Source of the DNA: a virus
Taxonomy: Duplodnaviria > Heunggongvirae > Uroviricota > Caudoviricetes
IMG/VR virus record: IMGVR_UViG_2897352509_000011
Direction: 5' to 3' (one strand)
DNA: 64,000 nucleotides
This document shows positions 48,001 to 51,000 of this stretch, one piece after another. A program made the position numbers. Each line of letters opens with the position of its first letter. The stretch's first letter is position 1.

Positions 48001-51000
48001 CGTTAAATTCGGCGACAGCTGCATCGACGTTATAGCCCTTGCTGTGTAGCTCGTTGAGGATGCGCATAGTTGGGCTTGGCATATCGAAGAGCACAGAAAC
48101 GTCCAGGTTAAGAGTTTTTCGATCAACATAGCTCATCATGGAGTAGGGGTGATGCTCTGAAAACCACGAGAGAGGGTAGTTGATAGATAGTGTTGATTCT
48201 GGAAGCTGAAGTTGTTCTGGGATTTTTTGACTGAAATAGCAGTCTTCCAGTTTTTCGAACACTTCCCACGCCCGATCGGTTTCGAGCATTTTTGCGTGAC
48301 GGGCTGCGCCGCGTTCTGTCCAGAGGATGAGGGAGCGGGCTTTCGGGGAAATTTGTAACCCTCTTAAAGATGGTTGCAAATTTTGTGAGTTACTTAAAGT
48401 AACCCGCAAATTTTGTGAGTTACTTAAAGTAACCCGCAAATTTTGTGAGTAGTTTAAAGCTACCCGCAATTCTTTAAGGTCATTACCAACAACTTTGAAA
48501 AAGTGTTTCCCTTCAACGAAGCGTACTTTGTTCTCATGATGATTCTGGCGAATACGCACCGGCTCAGTGCCGTAAAGCTGCGCCAAAAGTTCGGTGGTAA
48601 TAACAGGAATCTGGTTATGGGTGATCGGGGAGAGAGTTTCAACAGAAATTTTAGTTGTCATAATGACGCCCTCTGGTGGTTTCTTAATAACTCACCACCG
48701 ACGACGCCAATCGTCTGGTGGTGAGCTGAACAGGGTTGGCGTAACCGGCGTTACAGGAAACCGGCGCGGATCGCTCCGCCCCCATCCAGCCCACCATTAC
48801 TTTTTAGAGCACGTGCATACGACAATAAAAAACACGCTCGCGGCGTGTATCTGTCGCGGTCTCTATCCAGGACGCCAATCCCGACGCCAGATTTTGCTGG
48901 CGTTTGAGGAATATAGCCCCGAATAAATCATCACGTCAATCACCTTGTTTTCCTCGCACGATGTCTTAGCCACCGGATATCCCACAGGTGAGCCGTGTAA
49001 TTGAAGGTTTTTACGTCAGATTCTTTTGGGATTGGCTTGCGTTTATTTCTGGAGCGTTTCGTTGGAAGGTATTTGCAGTTTTCGCAGATGATGTCGGTGA
49101 TACTTCGTCGCTGTCGCCTCATGCAGCCCTCCTGACGCCCAGCCCGATCGCCATCAATGCCGCTTTGGATACGGTAGTAAACATCCGTCGAGGACTGATG
49201 AACGGTCGCCAAATCAGCAACATTGAGCCTTTGCTGTTTCCCTTCTTCTCCAGCCCTGTCGATGGTTCGATAAAATTAATCCGTCCATCAGTGATGATGC
49301 GAACTTCGTCAACACTCTCCAGAGCCTTGCTGAACCATCCGACAGACATATCCTCTGGCACAAGCATCACTACCGTCTGTCGCTGTTGTATGCACTGCTC
49401 AGCGGCTTTTTCCACCCACGGCCTGATATTGCTGTACGGTGGGTTATTCCAGATTGCACCGTGGCTTATCCACTCAGAATTTAGCGCGTCGTCAGCCTCA
49501 GTTAGCCAGTGAGCGCACAGAGCGTTTTTGTCGCTCGCAGCTGAATCCAGCCAGAATCCAAACTCAATATCCAGCGCATCAAAAAGCCAGAGCGGCGTTT
49601 GCCAGCAGTCCTTGTCGTGTGCTGGCGTATTTGATTTGATAGTCATGCAGCCTTCCCTTTTCGTTGTGACCATTCATACTCTCGCCGGGAGTCATCACTC
49701 CACCGCACGTTGCGCTCTGAGCCGAACCAGAACATGATTTCGATAAGCTCAGTCATGCTGGCCTTTCGCATTTTGCTGGTACGCACGCCAAGCATGACAA
49801 CGCCACCGTCGATACCAGGCGCACTTCTTTGCTCCAGTTTTTTGGTCTTAAGCCACAGGGCAGTGAACAGGTCTTTCCAGTCTTCCGGCGCCAGCCGTTG
49901 ACCATGCCATAGCACCTGACGCGAAACATCGTTCAGCATCGGCCACATGCGGTCATTCTGCGCTTTGCTGCGCTTGGGTTCTTTAACGTGGACTTCGTGG
50001 GGTGACTTGTCGTCGATGGGTAGTGAGAGAATGGCGTCTATGGCGTTATTTCTGATTGCTTCGTTGCGAAGCAGAAAGGTTTGCTTCATCTCCTGCTCTC
50101 CGGTTCCATTTTTCAGTAGCCGCAGCAACTGATGGTGCCCATGCCACCCTGGCTTCACAGAGGTCACATTCTGCATAGCCCCACACATCAATATTTATTC
50201 CGGCCTCAACCCACAGACGAGCATTACCGCCGCAAAACGGACATTCTTTTAGCTTTGGCTGGGTTAATGATAGGTCGCTCATGCTCACTCCTTCACTTAA
50301 AATCCAGACTCCGGATAATTCTGTTGCGCTGAAACTCATTGTTGAGTTTGAACAACCGTCGAAGAACACGGTCACGCGGATAGCGTCGTGCGGCAGGTGA
50401 ATGCTCATACAACTCATCAAGCGGCAAACTGGACGATGAACGATACCGATACCAACGCACCAACTCTTCACGAAAATTAGCCCTGACAAGCTCAGCTATC
50501 GTACTCATTTCTTAAAACCTCCTCAAACGCATTCTGACGCATTTTTCATTCTCGCTGCTTATCGGTATACCTTGCACGTGCTTACCTCACCACAGAGCGA
50601 TTGTGATGCCTTAAAAGCGATTTATTGAAGTGATATTTGCTTAATCGAAATTCTTTTCTTTGATTCCTGCGGCCCTGATGGCTTTCATTACTGCAATTAC
50701 CGTTTTGTCACGCCCATCCTCATAACCCATCGCATAAGCACCTTCTTCACCATCTTTCCAAAGGTCGTCATTCGATTCGGGCCAGTCGATATCCAGTTCA
50801 ATAGCAGAGCGCGATGCCTGCCATATCACCCAGGCAAACTCTTTTAATTCATCGTCTCCCGTGAACTGGCTTTTGTCTTTTGACCACCAGTTTTCAAACT
50901 GTCGGTAGCTATCGTTCACTTCCCTCTCCCCCAAATAAAAAGGCCTGCGATTACCAGCAGGCCTGTTATTAACTCAGTGATGTAGATGGTCATACGTCAG

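Follow-up and report, generated by a model that had tools for sequence, protein, structure and literature searches.

A Lar-type gene, ninB and an orphan adenine methyltransferase gene at the start of the nin region of a lambdoid Stx2c prophage

Within a 64,000-nucleotide (nt) stretch of Escherichia coli O157:H7-type chromosome (IMG/VR record IMGVR_UViG_2897352509_000011; this whole stretch of analysed DNA is called the window below), a lambdoid Shiga toxin (Stx) prophage on the minus strand carries a Lar-type gene (lar), the recombination gene ninB and a gene for an orphan phage N6-adenine methyltransferase (dam) in direct succession (Table 1). An initial annotation had described positions 49119-50282 as a counter-defence cluster of an orphan Dam-like methyltransferase and a Lar-type zinc-ribbon protein, lying together with NinB. 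These limits are exact: the methyltransferase stop lies at 49119, and the Lar-like gene starts with its ATG at 50282. The minus strand encodes all of these genes, and ninB is located alongside as described, between lar and dam. Comparison of 1,651 bases around lar-ninB-dam gave 100% identity with Stx2-converting phage 1717 and with phage 2851, both of them Stx2c phages, and identities of 98-99.5% with many further Stx1 and Stx2 phages; the RefSeq versions of these use the labels 'DNA methyltransferase', 'NinB/Orf homologous recombination mediator', 'Lar-like restriction alleviation protein' and 'NinE'. Furthermore, E. coli O157:H7 TW14359 (RefSeq) shares 99.8% identity with the window across 11 kb, with gene lengths and overlaps that agree with the present calls. 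Among 5,426 complete E. coli genomes, 2,149 showed some match and 480 contained at least 80% of the module; the listed E. coli RefSeq records name the products phage N-6-adenine-methyltransferase, recombination protein NinB, Lar family restriction alleviation protein, DUF7301 family protein and NinE family protein.

The methyltransferase scored 216.2 bits against PF05869 (cut-off 28.1; E 3.1e-64; model positions 1-166 of 169) and 264.2 bits against the TIGR01712 equivalog model (cut-off 97.05). It is identical in 173 of 175 residues to M.EcoVT2Dam (orf32 of phage VT2-Sakai), likewise an orphan placed between ninB and ninE, from which it differs by the conservative substitution I60V and by L169Q, neither of them on an invariant family column. 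These columns were derived from six family members of Escherichia, Staphylococcus, Gordonia and Lactococcus phages with 33-42% identity to the methyltransferase, and in the six-member alignment NPPY and all 19 invariant columns are kept, including W.TP, EF, LD.AA, NA and GR..F. The motif and domain check thus found an intact gene in which the methyltransferase motifs are present. M.EcoVT2Dam targets GATC according to a methylome study on Shiga toxin-producing E. coli, which cites Radlinska & Bujnicki 2001 (PMC6602927), and we infer that the prophage enzyme would make N6-methyladenine at the same site. No nuclease gene was found within ~3 kb of dam, where the genes either belong to other named families (NinB, NinE, ORF6N/Ant, KilAC, NinG, DUF7301) or encode fewer than 100 amino acids (aa), and the enzyme is therefore considered an orphan, as proposed initially. 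With regard to a class I (Rossmann-type) methyltransferase fold, a single-sequence structure model of the protein was poor, with a mean predicted local distance difference test (pLDDT) score of 43.3, and searches with the sequence and with a six-member profile retrieved no credible solved structure (best E 0.18 and 0.3).

The designation 'Dam-like' is justified by the reported GATC target, given the 99% identity to M.EcoVT2Dam, but does not extend to ancestry, since similarity to E. coli K-12 Dam was not detectable (BLASTP E 7.6 over 6 residues; no PF02086 match). With the PF02086 enzymes E. coli Dam and T4 Dam, the prophage protein has in common the reported GATC target, the N6-methyladenine product and the orphan status; E. 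coli Dam, however, comprises 278 aa compared to 175 aa here and is a functional analogue from another family.

The Lar-like protein likewise passed its family cut-offs, with 37.8 bits against PF14354 (cut-off 28.6) and 61.4 bits against TIGR03655 (cut-off 39.6; E 7.6e-17), and corresponds to PHROG 599, 'Lar-like restriction alleviation protein' (E 1.5e-38). It is 36% identical over 58 residues to Lar/RalR of the K-12 Rac prophage (E 3e-10), and its C14, C17, C39 and C42 (CxxC...CxxC) are matched in the alignment by the four Cys of the Rac protein, which bears out the assignment as a Lar-type zinc-ribbon protein. The protein is predicted to fold as a zinc ribbon followed by a C-terminal helix; the strands-plus-helix layout of a single-sequence model (mean pLDDT 60.7) is weakly suggestive, and among solved structures weak matches to zinc-ribbon ribosomal proteins alone were obtained (E 0.1). 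Both this protein and Rac Lar (RalR) are small, prophage-borne zinc-ribbon proteins of the same family encoded beside recombination genes (recT/recE in Rac), but the one studied here has a 14-residue longer C-terminal tail, whose coding sequence overlaps ninB, and is located in the rightward nin region instead of the leftward recombination operon. For the RalR equivalog model NF007260, the score of 28.7 bits lies far below the cut-off of 113, and a blastn search of the window with K-12 ralA, the window being the extent of this search, revealed no RalA-like RNA, giving only 18 matching nt at a distance of 28 kb (E 0.37).

NinB, too, exceeds its curated family cut-off and covers the complete PF05772 model (163.9 bits, E 2.1e-48, positions 1-131 of 131) and corresponds to PHROG 72 (E 1.1e-60). 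Its gene is placed between the replication genes and ninE/ninG, and its product serves as a mediator of recombination; it is no counter-defence protein.

Inspection of the gene borders revealed a tightly packed string. The ATG of lar is located 10 nt past the DUF7301 stop and is preceded, at a distance of 6 nt, by an AAGGAG Shine-Dalgarno sequence, and the last 44 nt of lar overlap the start of ninB in a different frame. The ninB/dam (49643-49646) and dam/ninE (49119-49122) junctions have the identical sequence GGCTGCATGA, in which the TGA stop overlaps the ATG as ATGA, and at dam/ninE this is preceded by AGGAGG. Such ATGA packing of genes has been described for the nin regions of lambdoid phages (PMC8022706). 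The presence of GGCTGCATGA on both flanks of dam represents the kind of short boundary homology that is thought to allow nin genes to be swapped between lambdoid phages. Upstream of the string, a terminator-like hairpin lies between the helicase stop and the nin genes at the position of lambda tR2, and this position suggests that it may act as a tR2-like intrinsic terminator. The nin region resembles those of lambda and P22 in its placement between the replication genes and Q and behind a terminator, in the presence of ninB, ninE, ninG and a phosphatase gene and in the ATGA packing. In lambda, ninB is followed by ninC and ninD, a slot that is filled by dam in this prophage, and ninB is preceded by a slot with DUF7301 and lar, unlike in lambda and P22.

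With respect to gene calling, the mechanical methyltransferase open reading frame (ORF) extends to 49673, whereas annotation places the start at the ATG of 49646. On the opposite strand, ORFs of up to 174 aa occur across the region; none of these plus-strand ORFs matched a Pfam family, and they were rejected as genes. Also rejected was a 147-aa lar ORF starting from TTG at 50489, which appears in the older phage 1717 annotation, because it overlaps the DUF7301 gene and because the ATG at 50282 follows a good ribosome-binding site and is also the start used in RefSeq.

Table 1 Features of the nin region start and of other parts of the window discussed in the text.
Feature	Coordinates	Strand	Evidence and remarks
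DnaB-like helicase gene	stop at 50990	-	last replication gene
Terminator-like hairpin	50941-50964	-	8 bp stem with 6 G-C pairs, then TTTTATTT (T run); consensus scan and sequence reading
Hypothetical gene (92-97 aa; orf97)	50641-50919	-	first gene past the terminator; PHROG 343, unknown function; no Pfam family matched; RefSeq coding sequence
DUF7301 gene (71 aa)	50293-50508	-	PF23975, 91.4 bits
Lar-family gene (78 aa)	50046-50282	-	PF14354, TIGR03655, PHROG 599; same coding sequence in RefSeq
ninB (148 aa), Orf-family recombination mediator	49643-50089	-	PF05772, PHROG 72; RefSeq coding sequence
Orphan phage N6-adenine methyltransferase gene (175 aa)	49119-49646	-	PF05869, TIGR01712
ninE (60 aa)	48940-49122	-	PF05322, 147.8 bits; translationally coupled to dam
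cI-like repressor gene	54088-54789	+	
Shiga toxin A gene	42809-43909	-	
ArdB-type antirestriction gene	2234-2713	+	PF03230, 126.8 bits; PDB 2WJ9, E 4.7e-100; KlcA 2KMG, E 5.9e-21

The association of lar and dam was followed in two samples of related loci. The lar-seeded sample comprised 98 viral contigs retrieved via a lar sequence pattern, of which 71 loci had enough downstream sequence, and the dam-seeded sample comprised the best 80 of at least 594 Dam protein matches, 73 loci of which had enough upstream sequence, with Dam at least 98% identical. In the lar-seeded sample, dam was present in 69 of the 71 loci, a co-occurrence that reflects shared descent, because these loci are all at least 96% identical; the same minimum identity applies to all retrieved lar alleles, and DUF7301 precedes lar in every one of the 71.

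The lar gene contains a G run at ~50145-50152 on the minus strand that varies between phages. In the window and in phage 1717 it is interrupted (GGGTGG), whereas 74 of 101 sequences, among them VT2-Sakai and most of the contigs, have G6. A run of G7 is present in the 933W reference record and in 5 of 96 lar-seeded viral contigs, where Lar is cut to 56 aa; in one contig, an A-run indel fuses Lar to NinB. These variants may reflect true slippage or homopolymer sequencing error. That the G run could serve as a slippage-prone on/off switch, so that Lar would vary within Stx phage populations and be locked on in this Stx2c lineage, appears highly improbable to us. As part of the same improbable reading, the rarer A-run variant hints that the overlap of lar and ninB could allow occasional Lar-NinB fusion products.

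Taken as a whole, we read the locus as the beginning of the nin region in a lambdoid Stx2c prophage, formed by an early gene string with Lar-type and GATC-methylase functions, and assign this reading a probability of roughly 0.7. Within the rightward early operon, orf97, DUF7301, lar, ninB, dam and ninE constitute a single string of translationally coupled genes. It follows the replication genes and the tR2-like terminator and precedes Q, a location which fits early, N-dependent expression. After infection or induction, N-antiterminated transcription is expected, judging from position, to proceed past the hairpin and to result in delayed-early expression of the string. The methyltransferase would then most likely keep the fast-replicating phage DNA fully GATC-methylated where host Dam lags, and progeny DNA methylated in this way would resist GATC-directed, methylation-sensitive nucleases. 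In this respect, virion DNA of lambda and P22 has been described as under-methylated by host Dam, and expression of the Phi24B dam gene shifts significantly on induction (PMC8022706, PMC3342100); the paper on phage Lula contains nothing on a Dam methylase. The Lar-like protein, based on its identity to Rac Lar and its family membership, most likely acts as the Rac protein does, in that type I (EcoKI-family) enzymes would be shifted from restriction to modification on unmodified incoming DNA. Lambda Ral, an unrelated protein from the leftward operon, alleviates type I restriction and enhances modification early in infection, and the same is proposed for the Lar-like protein. Restriction alleviation together with enhanced modification by type I enzymes is documented for Rac Lar alone (King & Murray 1995, cited in PMC4041452). 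In a genome-wide knockout of phage Bas63, the Lar homologue was less essential in E. coli DH10B than in three other strains, and a role against type IV systems was suggested by the authors (bioRxiv 10.1101/2024.10.10.617714). An anti-restriction role of lar and dam in this phage is plausible and agrees with the names used in databases, and publications on Stx phages count both genes among the anti-restriction functions (PMC3430580, PMC12502783).

Several points weigh against such a role. The host already methylates GATC, so that the protective gain would be quantitative at best, and GATC methylation also creates targets for methyl-dependent nucleases. Experiments on the effect of either protein on restriction in an Stx phage were not found in the literature, and the G7 runs, if real, would make Lar dispensable for at least some functional Stx phages. 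In the dam-seeded sample, lar was found in just 16 of the 73 loci, and 45 of the 73 showed a plain ninB-dam-ninE arrangement. Moreover, Rac RalR, the sole studied homologue of the Lar-like protein, has been reported as a non-specific endonuclease (DNase) toxin countered by the small RNA RalA, and not as a restriction alleviator alone (PMC4041452). The Lar-like protein might accordingly be a RalR-type DNase toxin, or have another DNA-directed role tied to the overlapping recombination gene, and in both Rac and this prophage Lar-type genes are found beside recombination genes. We nevertheless consider this unlikely, as the protein passes the broader Lar family model but falls short of the RalR equivalog model, no RalA-like sequence was obtained by blastn from the window, and the gene is located within a phage early operon and not in a stand-alone toxin-antitoxin arrangement. 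The co-occurrence counts also bear on the word 'cluster'. They indicate that lar and dam occupy separate exchangeable slots flanking a recombination gene, and it is somewhat more probable than the opposite that no functional cluster exists here, and that both are independent accessory genes in adjacent nin slots joined by short conserved boundaries. The identical junctions on the two sides of dam, the ATGA packing known from lambdoid phages (PMC8022706), the unrelated recombination gene between lar and dam and the rarity of lar in the dam-seeded loci all favour this, although nearly every lar locus has dam, which leaves room for a weak functional link, and the dam-seeded fraction, drawn from the best 80 of at least 594 matches, is rough. 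As a functional unit, the cluster of the initial annotation is not supported by the data, since lar accompanies only a minority of near-identical dam loci and a recombination mediator separates the two genes; their adjacency would result from the mosaic build of nin regions and not from a dedicated operon within the operon.

For the methyltransferase, a mainly housekeeping or regulatory function also has to be considered, by which the enzyme would top up GATC methylation against MutH nicking or take part in Dam-dependent control of prophage stability and expression. The host is Dam-positive, and the reported target of the enzyme is the host's own Dam site. In the prophage (10000-63000), GATC is rarer than expected from trinucleotide frequencies (108 observed vs 227 expected, ratio 0.48) and scarcer still in its left 10 kb (9 observed vs 38 expected). 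Counter-selection of GATC in enterobacterial phages has long been known and is ascribed to mismatch repair, which fits the scarcity in the prophage. Furthermore, host Dam is needed for stable 933W lysogeny, according to the account of Murphy et al. 2008 given in a study which itself suggests that Phi24B Dam supplements host Dam in lysogens (PMC3342100). Set against this, both roles can coexist, and databases and literature treat phage orphan methyltransferases as anti-restriction functions; we therefore regard a mainly housekeeping or regulatory enzyme as a real but less probable alternative to the early gene string with Lar-type and GATC-methylase functions.

Regarding the wider setting, the Stx prophage adjoins dacD/yeeA and follows the host genes DUF496, a FUSC-family gene and dacD. 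Its genes follow the layout of lambda (cI, cro, N, Gam, Bet, O-like, DnaB-like, NinG, Q, Stx A), with N, Gam and Bet in the leftward arm. Besides the cI-like repressor gene, cro and cII, it contains replication genes of the O-like and DnaB-like types, the nin region and Q, as well as three tRNAs and Shiga toxin A. The tRNA genes (43864-44104, minus strand) are located just upstream of the toxin A gene, and a match to the small RNA STnc100 (42242-42453, minus strand, 158.5 bits) lies just downstream of it. In the leftward operon, the exonuclease gene of the Red region is apparently shortened to a YqaJ domain fragment (59182-59673), beside which two minus-strand ORFs and an IS3-type frameshift pseudoknot (Rfam ALIL, 60296-60412) are found; over the region 59182-60693, fragment and pseudoknot together suggest an insertion sequence. 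The ArdB-type antirestriction gene, to which the initial annotation had drawn a parallel, could be confirmed in the neighbouring CP4-44-like island (1-5000, plus strand), together with DUF932, a RadC-like JAB protein and the CbeA antitoxin, which make up a typical CP4-44-type set.

Downstream of ninE, two tandem ORF6N-domain antirepressor-like genes (46967-48661, minus strand) have a 110-nt stretch in common at 99% identity, with an Rfam 'sRNA-Xcc1' match (47686-47769) between them, and the second gene contains a 30-nt tandem repeat in 3.1 copies (48376-48469), which is translated into repeats of the peptide NLRVTLSNSQ. In the interval that separates ninE from the ORF6N gene at 47903-48661 lies a promoter-like site (TTGACG-18-TATATT, 48939-48910, minus strand), after which come matches to the Hfq-binding RNA IsrK (Rfam; 48827-48903, 74.7 bits) and to the C4 antisense RNA (Rfam; 48714-48801, 76.6 bits) and then the antirepressor-like gene. 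The segment 48714-48939 with this gene looks like an RNA-controlled antirepressor module of the P1/P7 immI type inside the nin region.

In conclusion, lar, ninB and dam are ordinary early genes of this prophage that are already annotated in RefSeq and discussed in Stx-phage genome papers. Apart from their correct annotation, they are of minor importance. In practice, the anti-restriction roles given in Stx-phage annotations should be read as inferred. Moreover, the enzyme named 'Dam' in these phages belongs to a family distinct from host Dam, which is relevant to the methylomes of Shiga-toxin strains with several such prophages.

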